Below, in pieces: positions 2,270-60,408 of a stretch of DNA of 64,000 nt. Where the stretch lies: the NCBI RefSeq assembly GCF_006345805.1, contig NC_042998.1, positions 145,824,001-145,888,000 on the forward strand, given 5' to 3'. The position numbers and the translations under genes are program-made. Each line of letters starts with the position of its first letter. Position 1 is the first letter of the stretch. The notes below the pieces were generated by a model. The model was not told the DNA's origin. It saw only the letters and a list, made by a program, of their open reading frames with translations, and searched no databases. This DNA is from Octopus sinensis. Its lineage: Eukaryota.

Positions 2270-2550
2270 AAGAGGGATGACCACTAAGTGGACATCCATT
2301 ATGCTAGAGTGGTCTGATCACTAAGAAAAGATTGTTCTCAAGAAAATTCAGCAAACGCCAGAACGTAAGCGAGCAAAACAAATGAAAAGATACAAAATAT
2401 AAAGACTAATCACAAACCCGATTTCATTGTTACCACTTACGTAAATGTCCGCAATTCATCAGTGTGGTCGTCATAGCAAAATATATTTGCAGAACTATAC
2501 ACGAGACGTCTCCATGAGATTGCTGAATTTTCTTGAGAACAATCTTTATT
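2270..2550 (-). mobile_element. (TA)n-embedded Penelope-like terminal fragment with 28-bp inverted repeat
   Basis: AAAGATTGTTCTCAAGAAAATTCAGCAA (2327-2354) is the exact reverse complement of 2520-2547; hammerhead motif lies between; TA-rich repeats on both sides. Confidence 0.5.
2404..2472 (-). ncRNA. Type I hammerhead ribozyme
   Basis: Minus strand: CACA-CTGATGA-ATTG..(22 nt)..CAAT-GAAA-TCGG-GTT-TGTG; stem I CACA/TGTG, stem II ATTG/CAAT, minimal stem III, GUU site. Confidence 0.7.
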
Positions 2551-5914: not shown

Positions 5915-7165
5915 CAGAAATATCGAAAATGTTGGTTTCAAATTTTGGAATAATGCCAGCAAGTTCGGGTGGAGGGGATAAATCGATTACATCGACCCCA
6001 GACTTCAACTGATACTTATTTTATCGTCCCTAAAAGGATGAAAGGTAAAATCGACCTCGGTAAGATTTGAACTCAGAACATAAAGACGGAAGAAATGCAG
6101 CTTAGCATTTTGACTAGTGAGCTAACGATTCTGCTATTTCGCCACCTTAAATATGGAAGAATATTCTTTTCTACTCTAGGAACAAGACCAAAAATTTTAG
6201 GGGAAGGGCCAGTCGATTAGATCGTAGACCCCAGTATGCAACTGGTACTTAATTTCTCGACCCCGAAAGGATGAAAGGCAAAGCCGACATCGGCGGTGCT
6301 CAAACTCAGAACGTAAAGACAGACGAAATACCTATTTCTTTACTACCTACAAGGGGCTATACACAGAGGGGACAAACAAGGGCGTACAAACGGATTAAGT
6401 CGATTACATCGACCCCAGTGTGTAACTGGTACTTAATTTATCGACCCCGAAAGGATGAAGGATAAAGTCGACCTCGGCGAAATTTGAACTCAGAACATAA
6501 CGGCAGAAGAAATACCGCTAAGCATTTCGCCCGGCGTGGTAACGTTTCTACCAGCTCGCCGCCTTAATACCGAAGAATATTCTTTTCTACTCTAGGCACA
6601 AAGCCAGAAATTTTGGGGGAAGCAGTCAGTCGAGTAGATCGACCTAGTATGCAACGGGTACTTAATTTATCAACCCCGAAAGGATGAAAGGCGAAGTAGA
6701 CCTCGGCGGAATTTGAACTCAGAAGGTAAAGACAGACGAAATGCCTATTTCTTTACTACCCACAAGGTGCTAAATACAGAGAGGACAAACAAGGACAGAC
6801 AAACGGATTAAGTCGATTATATCGACCCCAGTGCGTAACTGGTTCTTATTTAATCGACCCCGAAAGGATGAAAGGCAAAGTCGACCTCGGCGGAATTTGA
6901 ACTATGAACGTAGCGGCAGACGAAATACTTATTTCTTTACTACCCACAAGGGGCTAAACACAGATAGGACAAACAAGGACAGACAAACGGATTAAGTCGA
7001 TTATATCGACCCCAGTGCGTAACTGGTACTTAATTTATCGACCCCGAAAGGATGAAAGGCAAAGTCGACCTCGGCGGAATTTGAACTCAGAACGCAACGG
7101 CAGACGAAATACCGCTAAGCATTTCGCCCGACGTGCTAACATTTCTGCCAGATCACCGCCTTAAT
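5915..7165 (-). mobile_element. Head-to-tail array of six SINE family A units
   Basis: Six copies of GACCCCAG..TACTT..ATCGACCCCGAAAGGATGAAAGG..CGACCTCGGCGG..TTTGAACTCAGAAC; minus-strand A-box-like TGGCAGAAATG and B-box GTTCAAATTCC. Confidence 0.9.
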
Positions 7166-7287
7166 ATCGAAGAATATTGAACAAAAAATATCACGAGTAT
7201 TTGTTTTATTTAGGCTATAAAATGAGGGGAGATATGTAATTCATACGGAAAGACAAACCTTTCAATAAATAATGACATGTTAAGTTA

Positions 7288-9191: not shown

Positions 9192-11380
9192 TTTCAAAAA
9201 GGATGTAAACGTGGGTCCTATGGTTGTAAAGATCAGCTACTCGTCATTAAGATGATTTTGGAAGATTGTCACAAACAACACAAGAGCTTATCAATTGCCT
9301 GGATAGACTATAAAAAAGCTTTTATATAGCTGGATTTTAAAATGCTTAGCACCTACTCTGCGAAACTTATCTGTAAGTATGAGATCATGAAAAATAACAC
9401 TGACTTTGAATAGTGACAATGAAACTTTTAATGTTAGGAATGTAAGAATTTCATTTGGCATTTTCCAGGGTGACTCTCTATCACTACTCTTCTTTTGTCT
9501 AGCCTTAATACCTCTTTCGGAATTTCTTGATGATGTACAATATGGTTATAAAATTTTTGATAAAAATACAAATCATCCCTTTTACACACATGGTTTAAAG
9601 CTCTTTGCAAAAAATGACCAACAACTACACGGTTTACTGGCAATTGTAAAACAGTTCAGTGATGACAACAGGATGGGATTTGGCCTAGATAAATGTGGAA
9701 AAGCTACATTTATCAGAAGGAAAATGATAGAAACTTCCAACGTTAACCATGAACAACAGAATGCTATAAAGGAGTTAGAACCAGCGGAGAGCTACAAATA
9801 CCTAGGTGTATTTTAATAAGATGGAATCAAACGTTCAATGATGAGGAAAAAGATCAGAAAAGAATGTTATCGCAGGGTTAGGGCAATACTCAAGACAGAG
9901 CTGAACGCAGGAAACAGGATCGAAGTTGTCAATACTTTAGCCATAACTGTCGTATTATTAACTGGTCAATTATTGAGATCTCTAAGCTTGTCAGAAAAAT
10001 ACGAAAATTGTTGACAATGATTAGAATGCACCACCCGAAGGCAGATATTTAACGACTGTACCTGTCAAGAAAAGAGGCTGACCGTGGACTTCTGCAACTG
10101 GAATTGACAATGAAGATTGCCACAATTGGTCAAAACACTTACCTGAAAAACTCTGATGACTGAATGTTAAAACTTCTCTTGATGCATGAAAACAAGAAAA
10201 CGTCATACTCAGTAACAAAACAGGCAAAGAAATATCTAAGTGAATTCCAAATACAACAAATCCCAGAATTAGACGTACTGGAAACAAGCACAGAAAAACT
10301 AAAGGTATGAAAACCCTTGCTAAAACGGTTGCTTTAGATATTTTACTGATAAATGGCAGGTAAAATCTCTCAATGGCAAATATCCAAAGAGAGCTAATAA
10401 TGCTGATGTTAACAAAGCCCTTACCCATCAATGGTTAGTATCTTCTGGCTTAAAATCAGAGACTGATAGATTTATCATAGCAGCACAAGATCAATGCCTA
10501 CCTACAAGAAGCTACCAGGCCATCTTAAAGAACGGCAATAGCTCAATAAGTCAGGTGTGCAAAAAACAAAATGAAATCATCGAATATGTTGTCTCCGGAC
10601 GTAGTTTTCTTGTGCCTACAGAGTATCTGAACAGGCATGATAGAGCGGCAAAGTATATTCACTTGGTAATTTGCAAACACTTGGATCTGTCCCATGATAA
10701 AAACTGGTGGGAACACAAACCAACTCCAGTGCTTGAAAATGATCACACCTCACTCCTTTCCAACTCCACTGTTCAAACTAACAGAAAGATAGATGCAAAT
10801 AGGCCAGACATTATGTTGATGGATTGCAGGCAAAAACATGCCTACTCATCGATATGTCTGTCTCAATCGACATAAATGCATCTGTCAAGACCTACCAAAA
10901 ACTGAGCAAGTATAAAGATCTAGAAATAGAAATTGGCAAAATGTGGAACTTCCAGAATAAAACGATACCTGTTGTCATAAGAGCTCTAGGAATGATAGCA
11001 AAAAAGAAACCCAAATATGAAAGAAATTCAAAAAATAGTGCTCATAGGAACTGCTCATATCCTAAGAAAAATATTGTCTGTATAATCCCAAAAACATTTT
11101 AATCTGTAAACAGTGTCAAAACACTTTTAAATGTACGCTACAGCAAACACCTTTTACTGTCATCATATCGTCACACTATCATCTTACCATCAAGTTACTT
11201 TTAAAACAAACTTCTAATCTTCTGATGTTTTGACAGGCATTCTCTAGAACAATACTCTGTGCAAAACCAAAAGTATAGCATCCTAGTCATAACACCAAAT
11301 TGAACTTCTAGCTGCTGTCTCTCGAGGTATGTGGGTGTGACTTGCAGTCAACTTGTACAAATACAAAGCAAAAGCCAAAC

Positions 11381-13989: not shown

Positions 13990-14190
13990 TCTTCCTACTA
14001 AAGGCACAAAACTTGAAATTTGGGGGAAGGGGGTATGTCGATGACATCGACCCCAGTACTTAACTCGTACTTAATTTATCGACCCCGGAAGGATGAAAGG
14101 TAAGAAATTGAATTTAGAACGAGAGGACGGACAAAATTCCGCTAAGCATTTTGTCCGGCGTGTTAACGATTCTACCAGCTCGCCGCCTTA
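13990..14190 (-). mobile_element. SINE family A
   Basis: Core CGACCCCAGTACTTAACTCGTACTTAATTTATCGACCCC; head ends CCAGCTCGCCGCCTTA. Confidence 0.8.
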
Positions 14191-18229: not shown

Positions 18230-18515
18230 TAGATTTTTATTGCTTTACTTGTTTCAGACTGCTGGTTGTTCGAAGAAATCAACCACAGGATTTATTCTTT
18301 GTAAGCCTAGTACTCATTGTGTCAGTGTCTTTTACCAAACCGCTAAGTTACAGACATGTAAACACAACAACTTCAGTTGTCAAGCAATGGTGGGGGTACA
18401 AACACAAGACACAGGCGCACACATACACAAATATACACATATATACGACAGTCTTCTTTCAGTTTTCGAGTACGAAATCTATTCACAAGCTTTTGGTCGG
18501 CCTGAGGCTATAATA
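18230..18515 (-). mobile_element. SINE family B (5'-interrupted)
   Basis: Reverse complement of family B body and tail (TTTACTTGTTTCAG..., TTCACAAG..TTGGTCGGCCTGAGGCTATA). Confidence 0.75.
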
Positions 18516-18517
18516 AG

Positions 18518-18549
<32 letters not shown>

Positions 18550-19503
18550 TCTAAGTCCACAAAAAACTATATCTGGTTTGTTATACCTTTCGGAAAACAA
18601 ATCAAATCGAACCTTCCTTTACAGTTCCGTGAAGCAGTGGCTATGAACTTTCCCAGGAATTCTATGTATTATTCTATTATCAATTCACATAAGGTAAGAA
18701 TTGCATTCTCTAACACTAGAAATCTATCGCAAATTATTGCTTCCCATAATAACAAGCTGCTAAACAAAGATTCTTCACCCGGGAGTTCTAACACTATTCT
18801 TAACAATTCCAACCAAACATACAATAATAATAATAGAAATAATATTGATAGTACCAACATTCGTAGCAACATTAATGTTAGCAATGATAATATTAATAAT
18901 AGAATTAGTCGGGTTAATAACAGTGGTAGTATTGATGACAACAACAACAACAACATTTCTATTATCAGTGATAATGCCGGTTATAGTACAATTAATAATA
19001 ATAACAATAAAAGAAATAGTCTAGTAGTTAATGCTAGCAATAATATAAACAGTAATCATAACAATAAAAACTCCATCTTGATCTCGGAGGATAACCCTAA
19101 CAGATTAGACTTCTTGTCCAATAATTCCAAAATTAAAAATTCCATTTACCAGTATAAAATTTCTTACGGTACCGATGTCTTCTTTTATATTGGTGCGACA
19201 ACTTCTCCATTGTCCCAGAGAATTTCCAACCATTATTCAACTTTCCGAGATAAGAGAAAACAACATAGTACAGGACTAAGTAAATCAGTTTGGCGTCTTA
19301 AGGACAACAATATAACTTTCAAGCTGGATTGGTCCATATTATCTGTATCCTTTCCTTTTGATGAGGGCAGGAAATATTGTTGCATCTGTAATTCTGAACT
19401 CTTCTATATACTTTTCGCCAAATTCCCCTTGGTAAACACAATAATAGAAAAATCCTATAGATGTAAACATTGGCAAAAACATACCTTCCACTCATATAAA
19501 TAA
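18550..19503 (+). CDS. Penelope-like element ORF, C-terminal part: RT-linker + Asn-rich insert + GIY-YIG endonuclease (5'-truncated)
   Basis: Open frame from 18550: IWFVIPF..NFP..KVRIAFSNTRNLSQIIASHN; SIYQY...FYIGAT...QRISNHYSTF..STGLSKSVW..WSIL..CCICNSE..RCKH. Confidence 0.85.
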   Translation, partial: SKSTKNYIWFVIPFGKQIKSNLPLQFREAVAMNFPRNSMYYSIINSHKVRIAFSNTRNLSQIIASHNNKLLNKDSSPGSSNTILNNSNQTYNNNNRNNIDSTNIRSNINVSNDNINNRISRVNNSGSIDDNNNNNISIISDNAGYSTINNNNNKRNSLVVNASNNINSNHNNKNSILISEDNPNRLDFLSNNSKIKNSIYQYKISYGTDVFFYIGATTSPLSQRISNHYSTFRDKRKQHSTGLSKSVWRLKDNNITFKLDWSILSVSFPFDEGRKYCCICNSELFYILFAKFPLVNTIIEKSYRCKHWQKHTFHSYK

Positions 19504-20024: not shown

Positions 20025-20123
20025 TTCCTTGTATTTCCTGATGAGAAGACGGCATAATGCAACCTTCATTCCTTCGGAATTAAGAATATGCAGTCTTCGA
20101 AACATATGTCGAAAGTAAAGGAA
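20025..20123 (+). ncRNA. Type I hammerhead ribozyme, intact core
   Basis: TTCCTTgtaTTTC-CTGATGA-GAAGAC..(42 nt)..GTCTTC-GAAA-CATAT-GTC-GAAAgtaAAGGAA; palindromic stem III ACATATGT; cleavage predicted after 20110. Confidence 0.9.
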
Positions 20124-24752: not shown

Positions 24753-25024
24753 TATATGTATATGTCTATATATATATATATACAAGATAAGAAAATGGAG
24801 AAATACATCCAAATCAAATATCAATTACCAGATAATACTCAATCACATACTTTATTAAACCACCACATAAGAGATTGTAGGGTTAAATATAAAAAGCAGA
24901 ACAAATCAGTGTACAAAAAGGAATGTACATAAAAAAGTGTACATAAAAGATTATGTTGTATAATAAGTAGAATATATATAAAAGAGAATATAAATACAAG
25001 TAAATATAAATATAAGTATAAATT

Positions 25025-25155
25025 AGATCTTACAGCTGTTTCGGCCATGTCGATAATTATGTCTCATTTTACCAATATTAGCCCCTTATGGTTGGTCAAT
25101 ATATAGATATAAATGAGACATTAACAAAAATATCACAAGGCCTCTTCGGAGATTA
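25025..25155 (-). ncRNA. Type I hammerhead with long stem II extension (CCGAAGA core variant)
   Basis: Minus: ATCT-CCGAAGA-GGCC..(~92 nt incl. ATGTCTCATTT/AAATGAGACAT helix)..GGCC-GAAA-CAGCT-GTA-AGAT; palindromic stem III ACAGCTGT. Confidence 0.75.
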
Positions 25156-25301
25156 TGTAATATAACTCAGTCTACATATATACCCACATGAGTTTCAGCA
25201 AAACAATTAAGATTCAAATGAATTCAAATGAATTCCAATGAATATGGTACTTAACTTAGATGCACCATAAAATTATTAACCATAAAATTATGTGGGGTGA
25301 T

Positions 25302-25664
25302 TATAACCAAGAAAAAAGTAACAAGAATGGATCAGTAGTTTAGTACAATTGTTTCATACTAAGAACATTTTATTTAAAGCTGCAAATATTACAGCAAATA
25401 TAATGTCAAGTATTCATCAACTAAATCACATATATGTTTTCCAAACATCCTAGAGAGTGTAAATATCCTTATGAAGTATTAGGAGTGAGTTCTATGAATT
25501 TGAAGTAAGATTGTAAGCAGACTTTATATGTTTTCCAACAATGCACAGTTTTTAAAAAAAAAATTTTTATGTTTGCTGTAATGTTTGCTTTAAATAAAAT
25601 GTTCTTAGTATGAAACAATTGTACTAAACTACTGATCCATTCTTGTTACTTTTTTCTTGGTTAT
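25302..25664. repeat. ~100-bp inverted duplication ending at (TA)n (Penelope-type inverted terminus)
   Basis: 25302-25403 is nearly the exact reverse complement of 25567-25664; the second arm carries only the 3' half of the hammerhead. Confidence 0.85.
25339..25425 (-). ncRNA. Type I hammerhead (UUGAUGA variant)
   Basis: Minus: TTTAG-TTGATGA-ATAC..GTAT-GAAA-CAATT-GTA-CTAAA; palindromic stem III ACAATTGT; same family as 58224-58313. Confidence 0.8.
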
Positions 25665-25675
25665 ATATATATATT

Positions 25676-25818
<143 letters not shown>

Positions 25819-27649
25819 ATATATATATTATTACTCGCATACATATGAGAGTGGATACGGCTAATGTTTCATCGTTTTATCAATTATCACCATGGTTCGC
25901 ATCAGTGGACAGCGAGTGTTAGCTATTGAAACATTTATCAAGAAATGGTAAAACTGGGTTTTTCTACTGCACCCTGTATTAATATTGTAGAGACCATGCT
26001 TTCGATAAAAATCTTATTGTGAGTTTGTGATTAGGAAGACGACCATAACAATTTAAAGTCTTCATTGACCTTCTTTCAGACTACTATATCTAACACAAGA
26101 TATGTAAATGAGATGCAGAGCCTTACAAATATTCTATAAAGTCAAAGGGGTTTTTCCTGTTTCTATTCCGGTCGTAATAGACAGAGCGAATACATCCTCA
26201 GTTTCTTATAATTGATCTCTTCAACGCCTCTTTTGAGAACGTTTGCTTCTTTTCTATAATTCAAAATCATGTGTGTGTGTACAAGTTAATGTGTGTGCGC
26301 GTCGTTGTATACGTGTGTTAGTTTGTGTACATATACGAGTGTTTTTGTATCTGTGTATGTGTGTGAGTTTGTGTATGTACATATATGACAATGCAAGGTT
26401 ATGTGTGTAAGCGTATGAGTCTATGCAGATATATGCACATTTGTGTGTATTAATCTATGCGTGTATATATCAGTGTGATTGTGATCCTCTATGTGTATGT
26501 GCGACCTTATGTATGTGTAATTGTGTAAATCTGTATGTTTCAGCGCATGTATAGGAGTCTGTTTATGTAAGTATGTGTGTAAATATGACTGTTGTTGTGT
26601 CTATTTCTGTACACGTATGTACCTGTATTTATGGAAGTATTTGCCAATGGGTGTAGAAGTCTGTATATGAATATCTGCATGTATGTGTCTGAGACGGTGG
26701 TATATGTGATGCACGTGTGTATGTATGTGTCTCTGTTGTGTTGTTTATGTAAAGAACTTTTAAGTTCTTCAAAAGACTATTGATAGGATTATTTCTGCGA
26801 GCTTAGATGAAACAAGTCTTCGGTATTTGGGACGGAAACCATGAATAATAATATGAAGCTACCCTGAGATAAAAAGACCACATCTCTCTGATTCGTTTAT
26901 AAATGGACTGGTTCAATCTCAAATCCACAGTTATATAATTCTCTCATTTTTTTTTTTTTTTTGCAATAGTTTCTTCAAATAACATTTGAAAGTTTCGCCT
27001 TTTTCTATATAATATTGCCTGGAAGATATTGTGATGATCGTACTTTTTAAAGTCTGTTCGAGGTTTTAAAGCACAGTTTATGCAGCTAGATTTTTCATCA
27101 GCTTTTATATAGATACAGTCAACTCTATCTTTAAAAGCACACGTTTAATTTCTTTCTAAATAATAACAATTATAAGTTGTATTATTTAAGCTTGAGCGTC
27201 TGACTAGATTTTTGTACTTGATATTCAAACTCCTAGAAATATTTAGTGGGCAGATACAGATATCTTATATGTCATTTCTATTACACAACCAGTGGCAATT
27301 ACATTTCAGAACTGTTCATCTCTTTGAAGGAAGTAGCCTCCTATAACATTTGTTTTACAATGATATAAAATTAAGAGATCTAATGTGATGTTTTTGTTTG
27401 TTTTTTTTTTAATCTCATTGGTTATTAGTTGTGCTATATGAGTACTACAATTTTTCACTGTAACGATAATCTGGTGTGTGTGTTTTGCGTATGTGTGCGC
27501 GCATGTGTACATGAGAGTGTGTGTGTGTGTGTGTGTGTGTAGAAGAAGTAGAACAACAACAACAGCAGCAGCAAAACAACAACAACAACAGCAGCAGCAG
27601 CAGCAACAACAACAACAACAGTTTCCATATATATATATATATATATATA

Positions 27650-28261: not shown

Positions 28262-28331
28262 ATTTAGTCTTGTATCACCTGTGATTTCGTACTTACCGCA
28301 GTTGCGACCGTACTCATCAGCAAGACTGATT
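28262..28331 (-). ncRNA. Type I hammerhead ribozyme, fully canonical
   Basis: Minus: AGTCTTG-CTGATGA-GTAC-(17 nt)-GTAC-GAAA-TCACAGGTG-ATA-CAAGACT; 7-bp stem I, 4-bp stem II, 5-bp stem III, AUA site (cut after 28273). Confidence 0.93.
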
Positions 28332-29599: not shown

Positions 29600-30871
29600 T
29601 TTTATAGAGATGTTTCTTTATTGCCACACAGGGCTGCACACAGATAGAACAAATTACAAGGTAGAGCTTTTCTTTTGAAGGTTTAAAAAAAAATTAAAAA
29701 AAAAAAAAAAAAAAAGGAAGGGGGAGTTTCGATCAAAAGGATCGTAAAAGGAGAGAAAGAGGCACAAAAAAGGGGGGGTTAAAAAAAAAAAAAAAAGGGG
29801 AGAGGAAAAAAAAATTGATCAATAGGATCGTTATCACAGAAATGTCAATATGAAGTGTAAAGGGGAGGACAGGTGAGGTTTACCCGTGGAAAGAAAAGCC
29901 TACGGAAAAGACCACGGTAACCTCGGTCAATGAAGTCACATTATATTTCTTTTTTTTTTTTTTTTTTTTTTTTTTGCAAATAAGCAACTCTCTGTTTTCG
30001 ATTTCTGGGTTCATTAGGACTATGCGCAAGGTGGCTTCGTCATTCATACGTGCCATTCTTGCTACATTCACCCATCTTTTTTTAAAAAACATTCGCTAGA
30101 CAAAACTTGCCTCTCTACTCTCACTTTCCTTTTCAAGTGGTACTTGAAGAAGTTGATGAGATTGACCAGAGAGGAAAGTGTTTGTCTCCAATCCTTTCAG
30201 ACGCTCACCAGATACATTCTTTCGCCATAGCCACAAGGATGATGAAAATAGCTCTTCCTTCCCGTTTGAAGGAAGGAGGCGTGACAATATTGACGATAGA
30301 CTCAGCTGATAAACCGACTCGTCCCACGTGACAGCAGTTGTTCGACATAAGCCCACAGGTCGGAAATTGTTGGACCACTGACGAGTGCGTGCAGAACGGT
30401 TTCGTCGCTCTGACCGCATCTCGGGCAGGTCGGCCCCGTGTTTCTCGAGCCGTGTCTGTAGAGCTTATCCCGAACGGGTAGCGCTTCTCGGTAGCACTGC
30501 CAGGCCAGGGATCTCTCGAAGTTGGTCCATGGGCCCTGGCCCGAAAGTCGTCCCGAACAGGCGGTCAGGTACTCCTCGTCGACGTCCAGTTTCGCCCCAA
30601 GCTCGTCGTCGTACCTCCCCTCCACTAAACCCCTATAGAATGCTTTGGGTGTGTTGAAGTCACTTAAGGTCGACCCAGGACGGCAGAGTTGCTTGAGAGC
30701 AACGCGACACTCGTGGTGCCATTCGCCTTCCTCGGCCTCTTTTTGATCCACGACTGCAGTTCGGTCATGGAGACGAGCTGGCGGAAAGCGTGCCTCACAA
30801 ACGGCGACCACACCTGTTCACCGTCGTCTACATAGAGCCAGAGATGTCGCAGTCTCAGCGCGTGTCTGCGC

Positions 30872-30967: not shown

Positions 30968-31447
30968 TTACACACACACGCACACACACATATTTATATA
31001 ATGTGATAATGTGTGTATGTGCTTATACACATATGTGAATGTATGTATGTACGCATGTTTTTTTATCATATGCTTTTAATTTTTCACCAACAGAGTAGAT
31101 TTCTAGCCTAAAAAGACTAAAATTTAGACATTTCTATGCATGTATACATGAATACAAAAACTGTGTGCTCACAAATATGCATGTACATATATTCATATGC
31201 ATATTTATATGCACATTTGGCGCATGAGGTTTAATTAATATTGTATGTACGGATATCATTATGTGCTAAACTTTAAAAATATTTTTAATATTTTGTTAAT
31301 ACCTTTGAGAAGTTGTAGCTGTAGTTTTCTGATTGGGTATGATCTTTCTGATTTTGTTAATTCTGGTTTCTCAAGATTGGTATTGAGGCAGTTTGTCATG
31401 CAGCCAAATGCTCCAATATTTATGAGTAAAAATCTAAAGTTATATTA

Positions 31448-32283
31448 TTAAGGTTATTTCTACAGATATTCTATAGAAATTGTAACCAACACTCATTTTT
31501 GCTACAGCGTTTCGTATACGAGATGTCAGACGTAAACAAACAATGATATCGAAGATGAAAATGAGTAATGGGCGTGCATGCCATATATTCGGGAGGGGGG
31601 TCCCCTCATCAGTACCCATCTAACCTATAAACCATCCTCAAACCCATTGCTTAAATAGCCATCACACATAGCGGTGCAAAGTTATTGGATATACCAATTT
31701 ACATATTAAACGCATTCCTGGAATCTGGTATGTAAATACTAATGATTTGTAGGTACGTGGTATTTCCTTGTACAACCATAATATACTATAAAGTATATTA
31801 AATGTTTTTATAAGTAAATACCATGTTCTACCGCGTTACCAGTGCGCTTTACATTATTTTGTTAAGGCTATTTCTGCAAATAGTCGTATCAGCTTCCAGG
31901 AATTCCTTTAATATATAAATTGGCATACCCAATAGTTTTACAGCGCTACGTGTGGTTGCTATTTAAGCAATGTATTCGAAGATGATTTATGGGTTAAGTA
32001 GGTGCTGATGAAGGTGCTAAATCCCCGAAATATGGTATATACGCATATTACCCATTTTTCATCTTCGATATCATTCTTTGTTTACAACTGACGTCTCGTA
32101 TACGAAATGCTATAGCAAAAATCAATAGAATATCTGTAGAAATAACCTTAACAAAATAATGTAAAGTGCACTGCTAATGCAGTAGAACATGTCATTTACT
32201 TATAAACGCATTTAATATGCTTTATATATTATGGTTGCATACCTAAATGCCGCGCTTCTATAAATCATTAGTTTCTAAAACCA
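31448..32283. mobile_element. Inverted pair of circularly permuted ~400-bp hammerhead-bearing monomers (retrozyme-like)
   Basis: Copy 1 (31448-31882) order A-B-C-A; copy 2 (31885-32283) is the reverse complement of C-A-B; CTGATGA..GAA motifs at 31612-31587 (-) and 32005-32030 (+). Confidence 0.7.
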
Positions 32284-39374: not shown

Positions 39375-41694
39375 CAGTGATTCTCAACTTTTTCCTGGCC
39401 ATCGCCCCCCTAAAAGCTATTTTGACATAAGCTAATTGATAATCGCCCACCAAAGAATGATAACAAATATTAAATGTAATGTAATTACGACTAATCATGA
39501 CTAAAAAATTTTGTCCATGTAAATGCAAAAGAAAAACGAATTAAAATAAAACTTTAGTCTAAAATTAAATGTAGAAAATGACTAATTAGTGTGAGCCCTG
39601 AGATTGGTGATGTTCCGCTAAAAATTCAATGTCAGGCTTAACGCTACTCAAACAGATACGAATGTCTCCACGTGAAATATTGTCAAATCTGTTTCTTTCC
39701 TTCCGAAAAATGTGATTGACAGTACTAAATCCAGTTTCGACAAGATATGATGTCGGAAAACACAAAAGGATTTTCGACATTCGTGACCACAAAATTGGAT
39801 ATAGGGATTTTACAACACTTGATTGCCAACATTCAGACAATCTTTCTTTTTTTTTTAATTTAATTTGAAATTCATCATTACATTTCATCTCGATGACTTC
39901 CTCCAGGATATTTTCGTGCGCACTGTGAGGATCACAATCGAATGGGTCAACCATCCATGGCTGATTATTGAAGTTAAATAAATCGGCAAATCTGGTTTCC
40001 AAATCATTTTTCAAGGCAGACAGATGGTCACAATAAATATTAATGTCATTTTCACATAAGTCGATTTCCGCTAGTTCGGGCATATCATGAAACTGTCTTA
40101 ATCTTAAATTAACCCGTTTGCAGTCTATCAGCGTTATCATTTTTCCTTGCAGCAGAAGAGAGACCTCATTCAGCTTACAGAAAACCCAACTAAGATAGTG
40201 TATGTGCTTTTGAGCTTGAATTTCGGCGGCTAAGTTTGAGTGTCCTTCTGTTCGTAAAAAATACAACTATTGTATTAAATAAGTTTACAAATCTTTCCAA
40301 GCAGTTGCCTTTGGATAGCCAACGGACATCGGTATGCAAAAAAAAGTCTTATACATTGTTCGTCAGCATCGACACAAAATTTTCGAATGTTAGATTTCAT
40401 TTTGTTTATTGTTTTTATAAGTGTTCAATAACTGGTTTAGAATGGGGCTTATATTTTTGGCCAAGAGGTTATGTCTGTATAGTACACAGTGTATAACTAG
40501 AATTTGGGGGCACAACTTTTTTAAATGAGAGATAAGTCCTTTGTGTCTCCCAACCATAAACATTGCACCATCAGTAGCACATGAAACTAAATTTTCACAT
40601 GGAATTTCTTCTTCTTCAAAAAACGTTTTCGATGCAGAAAATATAGAAGCACCCATTGTGTCAGTCTCCAACAGTTTTACAAATAACAAATCTTCTTGTA
40701 ATGCACAGTTTCTATCAAAGATATCGTACATATTCCATTAAAAGGGCCTTATTGACAACAACTGTGCTTTCGTCAATTTGAATAGAGAAATTCGTTGTTT
40801 TCAATCTTTGAATTCGTACGTCTTCGATATGACTTGACATTTCATCAATTCTCCCACGGATAGAATCATTACTCAAAGGTAGAGTTTTAATGATAGATGA
40901 AGGATCTTGATTCATAACTTCTGATATTACTGCTTCTACTGTAGGTATAATAATATTTTCAGCCACTGTATGTGCACTACCTGTTTTTGCAATAATTTCT
41001 GCAATTGTGTAGGGAGCAATCAGTCCACTGTCAATAATTTTTGTCTGTTTCTTGAATAATGATTTAACAGTACTTCGATTTTCAAAATCAGTTTTCAAGC
41101 CCTCAAAATATTTGATAGGCTTACCGACTTTTTCGGATGTTTTCTTCTCATGTGGTCAGAGAGCCGAGAGGGTTTCATGGCTTCATTGGACAAAGATTAA
41201 TGACACATGATACAAAAGGGCTACTTTGGGTCCGTAGAGTTCTTGATAAAACTATATTATAAGTACTCATCGATATACTGTCGACACTTCTTTTTCGCCG
41301 AGCCTGCCATAAAAAAAGTGGGTGAGAACGAATGCAAATTAGTAAACTGCGTCCGACGGTTAAGAGAGAGAACGTCAAATTCAATCAAGTTGCCGTGTAT
41401 TCAATGAATTACGCAGCCCGGCGGCCAGTGTCATAGTAACAAGGGTAAGAAATTTAGTGATGAATGAGTCATTATAAATCGATGAACTAAATCTTGGAAG
41501 ATAACGCACATATTGAGGCGCATAGTTACTGTATTTGATTTTGGAAAAAGAGCTGGTTTTACAGATTGACTGCAGTTATTGAGAAGAGCCCTTGTCATGA
41601 TGCACTGACTGGGTACGTGATTGCTTGTTGTGAGTACAGTCACCGATCGAAGACTGAATTCATCGCCACCCAAAATTTGATTTGAGAACCATTG
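39375..41694 (-). mobile_element. Full-length hAT transposon, Buster/Charlie group
   Basis: TIRs CAGTGATTCTCAA / CAATGGTTCTCAA; perfect 8-bp TSD ATGTAGAA at 39367-39374 and 41695-41702 with the nnnTAnnn Buster pattern. Confidence 0.95.
39586..41310 (-). pseudogene. hAT-Buster transposase pseudogene (ZBED5/SCAND3/FAM200-like family)
   Basis: MAGSAKKKCRQY..BED-like CIMC..SNEAMKPSRL; LSNDSI..RI, FSIQIDEST, CATDGA, IHCVLYRHNL, FPTSYLVETGFS, QSQGSH end; several stops and frameshifts. Confidence 0.92.
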
Positions 41695-48789: not shown

Positions 48790-49400
48790 GGAAGCTTGTG
48801 CAGGAACATGGCAAAAATGCAGATTCTATCCGTGATCTTGAGGGGCTCGAAACCGTAACAGGTTCTTTGTCACATATGAACATGATCGAAAAAGTTCAGT
48901 TCTTCGATTTAGATGTGTAGCGGGGTCTAAGGAACTTTTCCAGATGAGCCATCTTTCCAATTTACAAAGACCACACTTGCCACTACCGTTGCCAAAGATT
49001 TACACTTGGCCAAGATCTTCCAGTAAATCCCATATATAACTGGATAATTTGGCAGTTTTTCGATTATCCCAGTGTCTGAAGCTTTAGGTGTGATTGTTGA
49101 ACCTTGCTTTGAAATTTCCCTCCGTGAGACCCATATATCTCTTTGACGAAACTGTGTTACTAGCGTTCGTAGAATTTACGGTGGCTTCATAAATAAGCGG
49201 GCACAAGTCTTTATCCCTGCAGGAACAGCCGGCTTTTGTTGTTGTTTTGCATTGTGTGTAATTATGTTTTTAAAATTTGGGGTTGAACTAAAATTAATTT
49301 TTAGGTTATGCCTAAATAGTTTCCTATATTTATGATGTATTGGAAAATGTCTATCTATAGATATGTCTGAACATTTTTTTAATTTTTTATATATATTTTT
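48790..49400 (-). pseudogene. Penelope-like GIY-YIG endonuclease remnant
   Basis: HFPIHHKYRKLF..NFKNIITHN then YMGLTEGNFKARFNNHT*SFRH..AKLSSYIWDL; same motif order as 18550-19503. Confidence 0.75.
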
Positions 49401-50478: not shown

Positions 50479-51204
50479 GTGGTGATGATGGTGATGATGA
50501 TGATGAGGATGATGATGAAGAGGAGGGGTGGGGTGGCGGAGGGGGAGGGGGAGGAGGGGAGGGGAGGAGGGGAGGAGGGGGAGGAGGAGGAGGAGGAGGA
50601 TATCATAACGAGGAGAAAGAAGAAATAAAAGAAGGAAGGAGAAGGAATGTAGGCTTGTAGACATGTGAAACCAAATACAAGACAAAAGATTTATGAAATA
50701 AATTCAAAAACTAAAATTGAATAAATTGAAAAAAATAGATATGAATTCAAAATAGAAATTTTTAGAGAGAAAAATAACTTGAAACAATTTCACTTAGAAG
50801 GAAAGGTTAGCAAAAATCTTTATGAATTTAGTAACGACAAAAAAAAACTAAAATATCATACACATTTAGAAAACATTCAAAACTAAATATATTGATTCAA
50901 ACAGTGGAGAGTTTGGAGACGTTGCTTACTAGGTTATGGCAGACAAGGATGGCAAGAAAGTAAAACTTCAAACTAAACAAAAAAATTGCAGCAAAGCTGC
51001 ATGTTAGTGGTATCAGACGTGGCATGCAGACCATCATATAACTTGTTCTATTCTTCTCTTCCGTTTTATTTTGACATGCGCATTACGTTTTATTATTCTC
51101 TTCCGTTTTATGAATTCAGTGTGCACATGTGCATTGTGTGTTCATATTTCTCTTTCCGGTCCTACTCAAAACTGTTTACAGATCACAACAATCTCACGAA
51201 CTTA

Positions 51205-53045
51205 ACGAAGAGTTGAAAATTTTGGCCAAGGTACTAGCAAAAAGGTTGGCGCGTGTCGCGGGTGGTCTCATCGGGGAGGCGCAAACTTGCACCATTCCCG
51301 GCAGGACTATCCAGGACAATCTCCACTTTTTACGCTATGCCTTAGCGAGGGTAAATAGGCTTCCTGGCAAGGGTGGAGCTTTGATCCATTTTGACCAATC
51401 TAAAGCCTTTGACAGGGTTGACCATAGGTACCTGGTGCCAGTCCTCGTAGCGGTCGGATTTGGATCATTGATTTATACAGCAACATCGATCGATCGTTCG
51501 GGTGAACTGTTTCTTCTCGAAGCTGTTCTGCATCAAGCGTTGGATGCGTCAAGGATGTCCACTATCCTCACTTCTGTATATGTTGGCTCTGGAGCCTTTA
51601 CTGCGGAAGTTGGAGGATATGAGGGACGTCCCGCATGATCTCGATTGCGGTAAGATCGGTTACGGCGTATGCGGATGACATCACCATCATCATGTCCGAG
51701 GTGGACAACCTACAGAGGATAGGTGAGGTCATCAAGGAGTACGTGGCTGTGGCAGGGGCAAAATTTAACCAGGATAAATCAGTCGGCTTGCAACGCGGTA
51801 CCTGGAGTGGCAAATCGATACCTCCTAACAATATCGTCGGGCGTTGGACGGAGGGGCCAGTTAAATTTCTTGGAGTTTGGTTAGGTCCGGATCTCTGGAT
51901 AGAGAAGAATTAAAGCGAGGTGGTGAGCAGGGTGACCAACTTAACTCAGACCTGATCTGAGCGGTTGCAATCCCTGAAAGGGAAGGCGGAGATCGCAAAT
52001 GTGTTTATCGCACCTGTGATTACCTACCGCCTGACCGTCCTGTCTTGTCCCGATTCGTGGCTAAGCAAGGCGGAACGATTGCTCTTCCGCTTTTTGTGAA
52101 GGGGCAGGAGTCCACTTGTAAGGCGCTCTATCTGCTGCCAACAGCTGCTAAAGGGTGGGTTAGGGATGCCGTGGCTAATGATGCGCAGGCATGCACTGAG
52201 GCATCTCTGGCTCTACCTGGATGGTGAACGGATGTGGTCTCCGTTCTTCAAACTGATCCTTCCTAGGTTCGTTAGTTTCGATGAATTGGAACCGAGGATT
52301 AAGCATAGACCAAAGTTGGGCGCGTGGCAAGCCGAATGTCGGCAGGCACTCGCACTTCTCTGCCGGATGGGTAATGCCGGTGGCGAGGGTTCCACCTCAT
52401 CATTCTATAGAGGGCTGGTAGAGGCAAAGTGTGACGATGATCTGGGGGAAGCCTTGGGCTTCGACGAAGGTCAGCTTGTTGGTTTGTTCTGAAGGACATT
52501 TGGGCCGGAGACTTTGGACAACTTCCAAAGGTCTCTGGCTTGGCAATGTGAGCGAGGAGTCTTACCAGTTCGAGATAAACTCGCTAGGCACGGCTATTCA
52601 TGCCAGCCCACTTTCTCAAGATATGAGTAGAGCAGTGAAACTGTTCTGTACCCTATTGTACAGTGTCCAAAAATTACGGAACTGTGGGTACTCGTCGAAC
52701 GACTGCTGTCACGTCTGGGAAGAGTACGGCTCTCTTCCGAGTCGATTATTAAGATTGTTTCCCTCATCCTCCTTCAATAAGGAAGGCAAGGTGTGTTTTT
52801 TCGCTCTGGTAGCATTGGCGAAAGAGGTTGTATGGCGGACGAGAATGAGAGGAGTGGCGACGGGTGCCTTCATCTCCGGCCCTCCGTTGTAAAACAAAGG
52901 AAACAGAAAGGTTCAGTGGTGGATCTGGGTTTGTGGGGTCGAATCCGTCCCCCACTCCGTTGTGACGTGTTTTGTATTGTATTGTATTTCATTCGATTAT
53001 ATAATAAGTCAAATTTTTAAATTCGATTTTAATGTCTGATCATTC
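51205..53045 (+). mobile_element. Tx1-like LINE, 5'-truncated ORF2 pseudogene with 3'UTR
   Basis: KILAKVLAKRL, IPGRTIQDN, DQSKAFDRVDH, AYADD, KFLGVW, C-terminal region homologous to 29600-30872; AATAAA at ~53068. Confidence 0.92.
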
Positions 53046-56034: not shown

Positions 56035-56759
56035 ACGAAAGAAGGTTTGAAAATGCAATTTTAAAAGATGTTTATTTACCGGTTTCACTCTTTGGAAAAA
56101 GATTGTCAAAAGTAACATGTAAAAGTTTGGTTGTGTTAATTATTGGTTGTTACAAAATGCTACATTGCATATATACGGTCTTTGGTAACAAGAACATGTT
56201 AAAGACATAAGAAAGTTTAACAAGTTCCTTAAAATATTGGGCATAAAAGATTACAACATAAATATACATTCTCAAGAAAATGTTAAAGATAGTTTCCAGA
56301 AGGAATTGTTAAAAAGTTCAGTGGGATATTGGTATTGTATCTGTATATTCAAACACGCACAGAATATTGGTTGTCACAGAGTACTACAATACATATATAT
56401 ACATTCTTTGGTGACAAGAGCATGTTAAGAACATAAAAAAGTTTAACAAGTCCATTGAAATATTGGGCACAAAAGATTACAACTAATATATACATTCTCA
56501 AGAAAATATAAAAGATAGTTTCCAGAAGAAATTATTAAAAATTCAGTGGGACATTATAATAGTAGGGAAGCTCAAATTGACCTGTCCACCATGTTAATGC
56601 AAAATACTATTATCTATTTCAAGGGACACTCTAGGTGTGTTTGGGTGGGGGGAAGGAAGAGTAATGTGGAACTGAAAAGAATTTCTCCTTTTTGTCTCTC
56701 CTTCACGCCGGTAAAGTAAATAAACATCTTTTAAAATTGCATTTTCAACCTTCTTTCGT
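56035..56759. mobile_element. (TA)n-embedded element with ~45-bp inverted ends and ~190-bp internal duplication
   Basis: 56035-56079 is the reverse complement of 56716-56759; 56140-56330 repeats at 56365-56555; degenerate hammerhead (GAAACCGGTA) on minus strand at ~56073-56115. Confidence 0.7.
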
Positions 56760-57564: not shown

Positions 57565-57867
57565 GTTTTTCTTGTAGTGTACGTCACTATGATTTTACTC
57601 TATGATTCTATTGCTATCTTTCAGAAGAAAAAGACATAGAAATTCTGTTTAAATATTTTTATTGTTTTTGTACCTCTTGACGTTTCGATGTGTGTTTTTG
57701 TTTGTTTACATGACATTTCATTTCAACGAAGGCTACATATTATAATACTGGTTGTTTGCTTGGCTGTCCCCTCTGTCTTATCAAATTATATATAGATAGA
57801 TACATGTGTGGGGGTTGTATACACATATATATACATATATATACATATATACATATATACATATATA

Positions 57868-57913
<46 letters not shown>

Positions 57914-57917
57914 TATG

Positions 57918-57948
<31 letters not shown>

Positions 57949-58223
57949 GTGTATACACACACACATATATATATACATATATATGTATATATGTATATGT
58001 GTGCATACATATATATACATATAGATATATATATATATGTATATATACATATAATATATAGGTCACCTTCTCTGTGATGCTATCAAAACTTTTTTAAAAT
58101 TCTGTGATAAGACTATACATCATCTTTAAGGAACTTTAATGAACTTTAGAAATCTGTTTAATTATCTACATTACTTCATGAGTATAGCCTCAAACACTAG
58201 GATGTCTAGAGAACTTACATGTA

Positions 58224-58313
58224 TTTTAGCTGATGAGTACGGGACTCGTTTATATGCTGTAATCTTTGCAACTTTAATAAAACCTGTCCTTGTATGAAAC
58301 GATCGTACTAAAA
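58224..58313 (+). ncRNA. Type I hammerhead ribozyme, intact core
   Basis: TTTTAG-CTGATGA-GTAC-GGGAC..GTCCT-T-GTAT-GAAA-CGATC-GTA-CTAAAA; 6-bp stem I, palindromic stem III ACGATCGT; cut predicted after 58307. Confidence 0.9.
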
Positions 58314-59077
58314 CCTATCCATTCTTGTTGCTTCTTTCTCGCTTATAATCACCCCACATTACTGTATTGTTAATCAGTATAGTTTTTTTTGGTGCATCTA
58401 AGTTAGGTACCATATTCAAGTAAATTTTTTAATTAACTTGAATCTTTATTGCTCTTTGTACATATATATATATATATATAATATTCGCACAGACACACAC
58501 GCATACCATACACATACACATACCTATATATATATGTGTGTGTGTGTGTTTGTGTGCATGCATGCATACATACATACATACATACATACATACATACATA
58601 CATACATACATACATACATACATACATACATACATACATACATACATACATACTACATACATATATATATTACTAGTCTTTTCCACATTCAAAAATAACA
58701 ATATTATTTCTCCTCGTTCGTTCTCCTTCGTAACTCTTCTGCTTATACAAGATGACTTCTTTCGATACCCTTTTTTTTCTATCTACTCCGGATATGAAAA
58801 CCGGTTTATTAACCAGTCAATATAAAAATATTGCCAACTGATGCAAAAGGGCTTTGATTCAGAGCGGAAACATCGTGTTTCATGTTCTGATAGGCAATTA
58901 CATACTTACAAATATAATAAGTGATGTCTGATAACAATAGCTGCAAGAAATACATGATGGGAAAAAATTCTGGCTTGTCTCGGAGATATTTCATTTCCCC
59001 AAATAGAACCACGATGAATTAAAGCTTCCAATATTAAAGAGGTATGTCTGTTTAAGAGAAAATATGTGTGCATCTGC

Positions 59078-59987: not shown

Positions 59988-60408
59988 TGTATGTATGCAT
60001 GCATGTATATGTATATGTGTGTGTATGGGGGGGTCACCATCACCATCATGTGGGATCCCTATCACTTTATTATTTCCCTTTCTTCCAACCTCTTCTTTCA
60101 AACTTTTTTCTAATCAGTAGCCATGCTTGACCGCTAAATCTAAAGGTTATTTTCATTTTCTCTCTGTTTAGTTTCTCTCATTCCTTTGTGTTGAAGAGCG
60201 TAGGCTCGAAACGTAAAAAAAACTTTTTCATTTCCCAAGCGTCCATCTAATATACTTATTTGTTGTTCATACACCTGTCTTCGTCTTTTGTTTCTCTATA
60301 AATTTCAACTCTCTCTATTATGTGTGTGTGTTTTTATGTAAGAAATATACACATATGGATGTATATATGTATATATGTATATATGCATATGAATATATCT
60401 GTATGTGA

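Follow-up and report, generated by a model that had tools for sequence, protein, structure and literature searches.

Two copies of a hammerhead-like motif, A and B, lie 32.8 kb apart on opposite strands (A minus, B plus) of the 64,000-nucleotide stretch of Octopus sinensis DNA analysed here, hereafter the window. An earlier note on this DNA had pointed to their stem III sequences, which differ by a double change that keeps the palindrome, and had proposed selection on dimer-dependent cleavage. The question raised by this locus is whether the swap was selected or arose by neutral decay, and with which partner the palindrome could pair. On balance, we favour the reading that A and B are type I hammerheads in a shared dispersed repeat, likely the pLTRs of Penelope-like elements (PLEs). 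According to the modelled structures, the palindrome would pair two copies for self-cleavage, and the swap would have been selected.

Hammerhead motifs A and B

Copy A is composed of a stem I TTTAG/CTAAA (25425-25421/25343-25339), the 5' core TTGATGA at 25420-25414, a stem II hairpin of 58 nt (25413-25356; -14.8 kcal/mol, z -4.0) and a 3' part in which GAA is followed by ACAATTGT and an A at 25344, after which cleavage is predicted. In copy B, stem I is TTTTAG/CTAAAA and stem II comprises 59 nt (58237-58295), while GAA is followed by the palindromic stem III ACGATCGT (58299-58306) and an A at 58307, again with predicted cleavage after this A. Both stem III strings read as the earlier note had quoted them, and the first pair of stem II is A-U in A and G-U in B, as described there. 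Two points are absent from that note, namely ACAATTGT in a further partial copy, A2, and a core change in copy A. The latter, C3U, turns the C3-G8 pair into U-G, and copy A is probably impaired because of it. Core mutants were rejected in PMC3088659, where U3-A8 is described as a compensated form, and Fig. S3 of PMC4209133 contains one PLE representative with U3 opposite G8. Judged by their sequences, copy B and motif C, a member of another family, are predicted to be better activity candidates than A, and A and motif D would at best be impaired members of the type I hammerheads. The coordinates of all features are given in Table 1.

The 5' strand of stem I (25421-25425 on the minus strand, 58224-58229 on the plus strand) ends with TTTAG right before the core and resembles a 3' splice site. 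In Penelope of D. virilis, the intron end maps to helix I (PMC4209133).

Table 1. Coordinates of hammerhead motifs and associated features in the window
Feature	Positions	Strand	Description
Motif F, hammerhead-like	2411..2466	-	intact CTGATGA core; stem III ATCGGGT, near-palindromic
Open frame, PLE endonuclease-like	18517..19503	+	C-terminal 137 aa resemble the PLE C-terminal GIY-YIG endonuclease
Hammerhead C, other family	20034..20114	+	intact core, G10.1-C11.1, stem III ACATATGT
Hammerhead D, other family	25027..25153	-	core CCGAAGA (U4C), stem III ACAGCTGT
Repeat A	25204..25478	-	span homologous to repeat B
Copy A, type I hammerhead motif	25339..25425	-	descriptor scan and folding
Palindromic stem III of copy A	25345..25352	-	ACAATTGT
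A2, partial copy of A, inverted	25567..25665	+	79-nt perfect inverted arms
(TA)n microsatellite adjoining A2	25662..25828	.	
Hammerhead E	28266..28327	-	intact core; stem I of 7 bp and stem II of 25 nt
Repeat B, solo copy	58172..58451	+	
Copy B, type I hammerhead motif	58224..58313	+	intact CTGATGA core
Degenerate minimal hammerhead	60185..60218	+	stem II GAGC/GCTC, stem III ACGT, two core mismatches

Descriptor scans and other motifs in the window

The strict descriptor comprised the hammerhead core with at most one mismatch in CUGANGA and AC...GU in stem III; a palindrome was not required. Four matches from three families (A, B, C and D) were obtained in the window, and the loops of all four are palindromic (ATAT in C, AGCT in D, AATT in A and GATC in B). 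No match was found in any of 40 block-wise dinucleotide shuffles, a control that is somewhat generous because the descriptor was written after the copies had been seen. With a looser descriptor, in which only A15.1-U16.1 is fixed in stem III, E and F were added, giving six real matches with four perfect palindromes; 15 shuffles yielded five matches and no palindrome. The core (C3 U4 G5 A6 N7 G8 A9...G12 A13 A14 A15.1...U16.1 H17) is complete in B, C and E. The extra nucleotide after A9 is missing from A to D, and positions 10.1-11.1 are occupied by A-U in A, G-U in B and G-C in C and D. The helices (stem I being the open one) comprise 5-6 bp in stem I, at least 4 bp in stem II and, in stem III, 2 bp in the monomer and 8 bp in the dimer.

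Stem II forms a hairpin of 54-100 nt in all four strict matches, which belong to three unrelated families, with z values of -2.2 to -4.4 that are inflated somewhat because the hairpin ends were chosen for pairing. RNAalifold placed just three consensus pairs on the stem II regions of A and B, since the middle registers of the two stems differ. When the whole window was searched with Rfam, no matches were obtained at gathering score, and at E ≤ 1 only microsatellite-driven miRNA and snoRNA were among the matches listed (150 of 213). Even at E ≤ 10, no hammerhead was reported when the A/D and B regions were scanned locally with Rfam, and hammerhead E reached 17.4 bits (E 0.11) with Hammerhead_1, the gathering score of which is 34. 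The long stem II probably costs Rfam score because the Hammerhead_1 model has 45 positions.

Two of the other families named in the earlier note, ACATATGT and ACAGCTGT, proved to belong to complete hammerhead motifs, C and D. Stem II measures 54 nt in C (20045-20098) and 100 nt in D (25043-25142; -30.9 kcal/mol, z -4.4). D shares the strand of A and follows it 185 nt downstream, and no homology of D to A or B was detected with blastn. Hammerhead E contains a 12-nt near-palindromic stem III, ATCACAGGTGAT, which alternatively closes as a 4-bp monomer stem; E is the window's best candidate for monomer activity. Motif F resembles E in its architecture and folds at shuffle level (z -0.07). The remaining two families fared less well. 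For the ACCGGT site at 56086 (-), none of the scans detected a 5' core with which it could pair. ACGT has a single match, on the plus strand (the degenerate motif in Table 1), but it carries two core mismatches and was obtained only with a descriptor for which shuffles give 0-6 matches; its stem III has no variable loop.

An insertion with inverted ends (56040-56079/56716-56866), an internal partial tandem (56141-56330/56365-56555) and (TA)n on both sides has a PLE-like layout. It contains the ACCGGT site, without a hammerhead core.

Extent and setting of the A/B repeat

The window is AT-rich (28-45% GC per 2 kb) and dense in microsatellites and broken transposon frames, and it looks like animal non-coding DNA. 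A and B share a repeat of ~280 bp (blastn 76.6% over 286 columns, E 4e-52), with identical bases in 219 of the 269 ungapped columns. While the homology reported earlier was confirmed and includes the ribozyme, the "several hundred bp of flank" was an overstatement: outside the motif it covers ~190 columns, about 50 upstream and 140 downstream, and in the 5' flank A and B differ at 15 of 52 columns. TA-rich microsatellites lie on both sides of repeat B, on the upstream side at 57825-58060 and on the downstream side from about 58460. Repeat A is likely the 5'-truncated pLTR, or 3' end, of a PLE. Its inverted partial copy A2 is identical to A at 97 of 99 aligned bases, plus one 3-nt gap; it holds the ribozyme 3' half including ACAATTGT (25615-25622), lacks the 5' core and terminates at (TA)n. 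Beyond A, A2 and B, no copies of the family were found in the window with nhmmer.

Several other repeats are present in the window. A long imperfect inverted repeat extends over 31440-32272 (about 780 columns, 70% identity), and fragments of a hAT-type transposase and of non-LTR reverse-transcriptase elements are located at 39586-41155 (-), 9391-10875 (+), 51114-52892 (+) and 30217-30817 (-). An abundant, partly tandem short interspersed repeat is found at 5979-7178, with copies near 14030, 15110, 27650, 43700 and 47630; it presumably resembles one in octopus genomes.

Selection or CpG decay in stem III

The columns of stem I, GAAAC and GTH adjoining the core are unchanged between A and B. The palindrome-keeping double change claimed earlier is present, but it amounts to one covarying pair out of four, the other three stem III pairs being invariant. 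In the named structure, 41 of 42 cells are paired and both-sided changes number two (n=2), and the covariation was reached in 120 of 500 shuffles of a pair-shuffle control. With substitution rates derived from the remainder of the alignment, a loop that changes neutrally would remain palindromic in 5.4% of cases from B to A and in 2.7% from A to B; with a CpG loss probability of 0.5-0.95, 13-62% of changed loops stay palindromic. For three independent family palindromes, the chance is about 4e-4 from composition and about 1e-3 from the background, in which 20 of 187 AC-N4-GT sites are palindromic. Selection for a palindromic stem III, as the earlier note proposed, is consequently backed across families (3/3 strict), whereas the A/B pair alone was chosen post hoc. 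By its sequences the pair, which represents one compensatory event in two full copies in the window, is suggestive at the 0.03-0.3 level, because an ancestor with A-like stem II and B-like stem III needs the stem III event alone.

The main alternative is neutral and starts from the two CpGs in ACGATCGT. A GATC ancestor would have lost both by deamination or AT-biased decay, the hammerheads still being of the dimer type. The changes CG to CA and CG to TG yield exactly ACAATTGT, the sole double-decay product that retains C15.2 and G16.2, so that the palindrome would survive by mutational symmetry. Further signs of decay are found around stem III: the aligned region contains five CpGs in B and none in A, four of the five reading TG/CA in A (one of them gap-placement-dependent; chance 0.018), and changes from G/C in B to A/T in A number 27, against 11 in the reverse direction (p 0.014). 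The CpG observed/expected ratio is 0.18 at 24800-25660, and the C3U change of copy A can be counted in the same direction. In 16 other repeat pairs, however, transitions are no more frequent at CpG bases (69/496) than at other G/C (283/2246; p 0.42), and outside stem III only two of three CpGs read TG/CA (p 0.17). Low methylation has been reported for octopus repeats, most of which are unmethylated (PMC9476566), and this likewise speaks against the neutral route. Contrary to decay, stem II of A folds better than that of B: when neutral descent from B was simulated 2000 times, 98.6% of the products had a less stable stem II, and A is therefore not simply a decayed B. In the reverse simulation, starting from A, 11.75% of the products equalled stem II of B. 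Moreover, A2 carries AATT like A. If both were inserted together, AATT predates the insertion and was already present in the source element, an argument that would fail if A2 came from later duplication or conversion. We regard neutral loss of both CpGs as possible but unlikely. For the A/B double change, the sequences favour selection over neutrality, short of demonstration, because an excess of changes at CpGs is missing from the 16 other repeat pairs. The case also carries a warning, as a palindrome-keeping double change at two CpGs can come from strand-symmetric mutation.

A selected path between GATC and AATT without a fitness valley exists, since the GAUU intermediate still self-pairs (loop self-pairing energies: GAUU -5.8, AAUU -6.4 and AAUC, unpaired, +0.3 kcal/mol). 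Most likely, two source subfamilies came to differ in this way and selection for self-pairing would have kept the palindrome, the probable path leading via GATT, in which G-U wobbles would maintain pairing. The present copies are solo insertions, likely without a cis partner, and if there was selection, its target was most likely the source elements and not these copies. We infer transcription, cleavage, use of the dimer, selection on the A/B pair and the order of changes.

Predicted dimer cleavage and possible partners

In the proposed mechanism, stem III of the monomer would consist of 2 bp closing a 4-nt loop. In the dimer, 8 bp would form between the GAAAC half of one copy and the GUH half of its partner, and stem I would form across copies. 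Longer or partial-tandem precursors would then be cleaved after GUA to yield element RNA of unit length. This role is taken from the literature, and by analogy such precursor processing is the most likely one; PMC4209133 proposes such RNA processing and reports low activity in vitro. The palindrome also allows pairing of two separate RNAs. In the models, the double hammerhead is favoured over two monomer-active folds by 9.6 kcal/mol for A, 13.2 for B, 10.2 for C and 14.5 for D. The active form is nevertheless not the minimum when the RNA folds freely: for A and B it lies 5.7-6.6 kcal/mol above the ensemble as a monomer and 2.5-6.5 kcal/mol as a dimer, and 2.3-6.5 kcal/mol over all modelled dimers. 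Stem III self-pairs range from -6.4 to -11.1 kcal/mol, while cross-pairs among A to D are at -2.2 kcal/mol or weaker.

The "tandem or multimeric transcripts" deduced in the earlier note do not follow at these loci, as there is no second copy of the family on the same strand in the window; they would apply at most to source elements outside it. Three pairings were considered and rejected. Lying on opposite strands, A and B share no sense transcript, and their stem III heteroduplex has -1.9 kcal/mol, compared to -6.4 and -10.0 kcal/mol for the self-pairs. A and D, 185 nt apart on the same strand, would form a cis heterodimer with 0 bp in stem I across the families and -2.2 kcal/mol in stem III. 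A2 is inverted relative to A and has no 5' core; a read-through RNA over A2 would bury the 3' half of A in a hairpin of ~95 bp.

Cleavage might instead proceed in the monomer, with the long stem II helping a 2-bp stem III and tetraloop, the palindrome being optional or rate-modulating. The axolotl hammerhead HHR_Amex2, which has 2 bp and a tetraloop in helix III, reached 22% cleavage within 1 h when tested as a monomer (PMC7229834), hammerhead E can form a 4-bp monomer stem III, and all copies in the window are solo. On the other hand, monomer cleavage leaves the palindromes in 3/3 strict-hit families unexplained. Dimers cleave much more efficiently than monomers according to PMC7229834, and the modelled dimers gain 9.6-14.5 kcal/mol. 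We consider this alternative very unlikely and retain dimer cleavage as the preferred reading.

Penelope-like context

Hammerhead C is located 530 nt downstream of the stop of the endonuclease-like open frame, on the same strand. For the last 137 aa of this frame, 2302 relatives were found at E ≤ 0.001, and among the 150 listed at least three have a length of 658-720 aa, align through their C-terminal end and contain a YRDD motif upstream of the aligned part. This layout appears, from the sequences, to be that of a PLE with C-terminal endonuclease. In the Atlas, 11% of one cluster provided a GIY-YIG lead for the frame. With Pfam, the frame did not match GIY-YIG, and the six relatives scanned out of the 150 listed matched neither a reverse transcriptase nor an endonuclease, and nothing was found in a word-index protein search of the ORF 18562-19500 against longer proteins. 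The frame is 5'-truncated and its reverse transcriptase part was not seen. When the 150 relatives were searched against the window with tblastn, meaningful E values were obtained only at 18500-19500 and 48850-49360. No PLE coding remnant was detected near A, B or D in this search, and a reverse transcriptase remnant of the kind of C-terminal-endonuclease PLEs was not found in the window.

The region around 48850 contains a second broken PLE-type endonuclease remnant (48853-49358, minus strand; tblastn E 1e-22). Descriptor scans detected no hammerhead downstream of it.

PLE insertions are known for an adjoining inverted 5'-truncated copy, (TA)n targets and a hammerhead in the pLTR (PMC8557442). 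A is adjoined by the inverted A2, which ends in (TA)n, and B sits between TA-rich microsatellites; by analogy, the inverted truncated copy and the (TA)n neighbours point indirectly to a likely PLE origin of the A/B family. A and B could also be solo monomers of a non-autonomous retrozyme-type repeat that spreads as short tandem units via circular RNA. No coding remnant lies beside either copy, the shared unit of ~280 bp falls within the size range of retrozymes (PMC7229834), and solo retrozyme monomers are common (bioRxiv 10.64898/2026.07.22.740005). However, a tandem array is missing at both loci, and a truncated copy in inverted orientation next to the element is characteristic of PLEs (PMC8557442). 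Head-to-tail units (at least two, each with a hammerhead) were found at none of A, B, C and E. A retrozyme origin is thus rated as highly improbable, even if both readings overlap, because bioRxiv 10.64898/2026.07.22.740005 derives retrozymes from PLE pLTRs.

The lacking Rfam matches of A, B and D and the core mismatches in A and D could be quoted in favour of a chance resemblance to ribozymes within AT-rich repeats. This notion is practically dismissed by four real matches against none in 40 shuffles, by stem II z values of -2.2 to -4.4 and by the location of hammerhead C where PLE hammerheads are expected.

Significance

The palindrome, dimer cleavage and the PLE link have already been published, so that the present finding adds examples and not a principle. 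Within 64 kb, six or seven motifs resemble hammerheads and none reaches the Rfam threshold, which suggests that many more with long stem II hairpins have gone uncounted in this genome. In the A/B pair, a natural experiment is available on whether the stem III sequence sets partner choice, and it bears on the role of PLE hammerheads in vivo. A far-reaching extension, which we hold to be doubtful, is that the genome hosts a widespread long-stem-II hammerhead variant missed by standard models, with the palindrome acting as a partner code that admits a motif's own kind only. If this were true, a swap from GATC to AATT would sever a retroelement subfamily from cleaving its relatives and from being cleaved by them.

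Comparison with published systems

Dimer-cleaving small hammerheads from Penelope-like retrotransposons were reportedly described by Lunse, Weinberg and Breaker (RNA Biol 14:1499), whose set could already include the present motifs. With a diminished palindromic stem III, a PLE link and dimer cleavage, these variants are said to match what the earlier note had deduced.

The hammerheads of Cervera and de la Pena 2014 (PMC4209133) resemble those of the window in being of type I, with a helix I of 4-6 bp, a palindrome, mostly solo truncated copies and high variability. Palindromic 15.2-16.2 together with loop 3 is listed there as a consistent feature of PLE hammerheads. A palindromic stem III that allows dimer cleavage, with swaps between families, as set out in the earlier note, is thus already in print (PMC4209133): Fig. 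S3 contains palindrome swaps in related families (CGCG and GGCC loops in Aedes). The consensus of that study has an extra nucleotide after A9 and G10.1-C11.1, unlike A to D, which have no extra nucleotide. In the same Fig. S3, A-U and G-U occur at 10.1-11.1 and some representatives are without the extra nucleotide; A to D depart from the consensus and not from the published range, because each exception is found in that figure. Full PLE linkage is a further difference, as none was found for A/B in the window, unlike the elements of PMC4209133.

A model of dimers and tandems is stated for PLE hammerheads in a review (PMC6765202). The legend of Fig. S8 in PMC3088659 (Perreault et al. 2011) likewise mentions palindromic stem III/loop III variants that allow dimeric pairing (Aedes and other repeat-type), although the filter of that study would reject A and D for their core mutations. 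The hammerheads of newt and axolotl satellites and of animal non-LTR retrozymes (PMC7229834; bioRxiv 10.64898/2026.07.22.740005) share a weak helix III and a palindromic tetraloop with those described here. In contrast to the solo motifs with long stem II in the window, they are arranged in head-to-tail arrays and have a short canonical helix II with a loop 1-loop 2 contact. This contact of fast hammerheads is reported to be absent from PLE minimal variants (PMC7761336). PLEs with a C-terminal endonuclease (Penelope/Poseidon, Neptune, Nematis and Hydra; PMC8557442) have inverted truncated copies and a microsatellite bias as observed here; the four stem III strings are absent from the supplement of that paper. 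A narrow literature search returned no relevant report of an octopus hammerhead ribozyme or an extended stem II.

Stem II comprises 54-100 nt in the four strict matches and up to about 23 nt in the 56 rows of Fig. S3 of PMC4209133, which were obtained with a size-limiting descriptor. Judged by sequence, A to D appear to be examples of an already described hammerhead design, apart from the long stem II of 54-100 nt, which seems to be the one unusual trait of these motifs.
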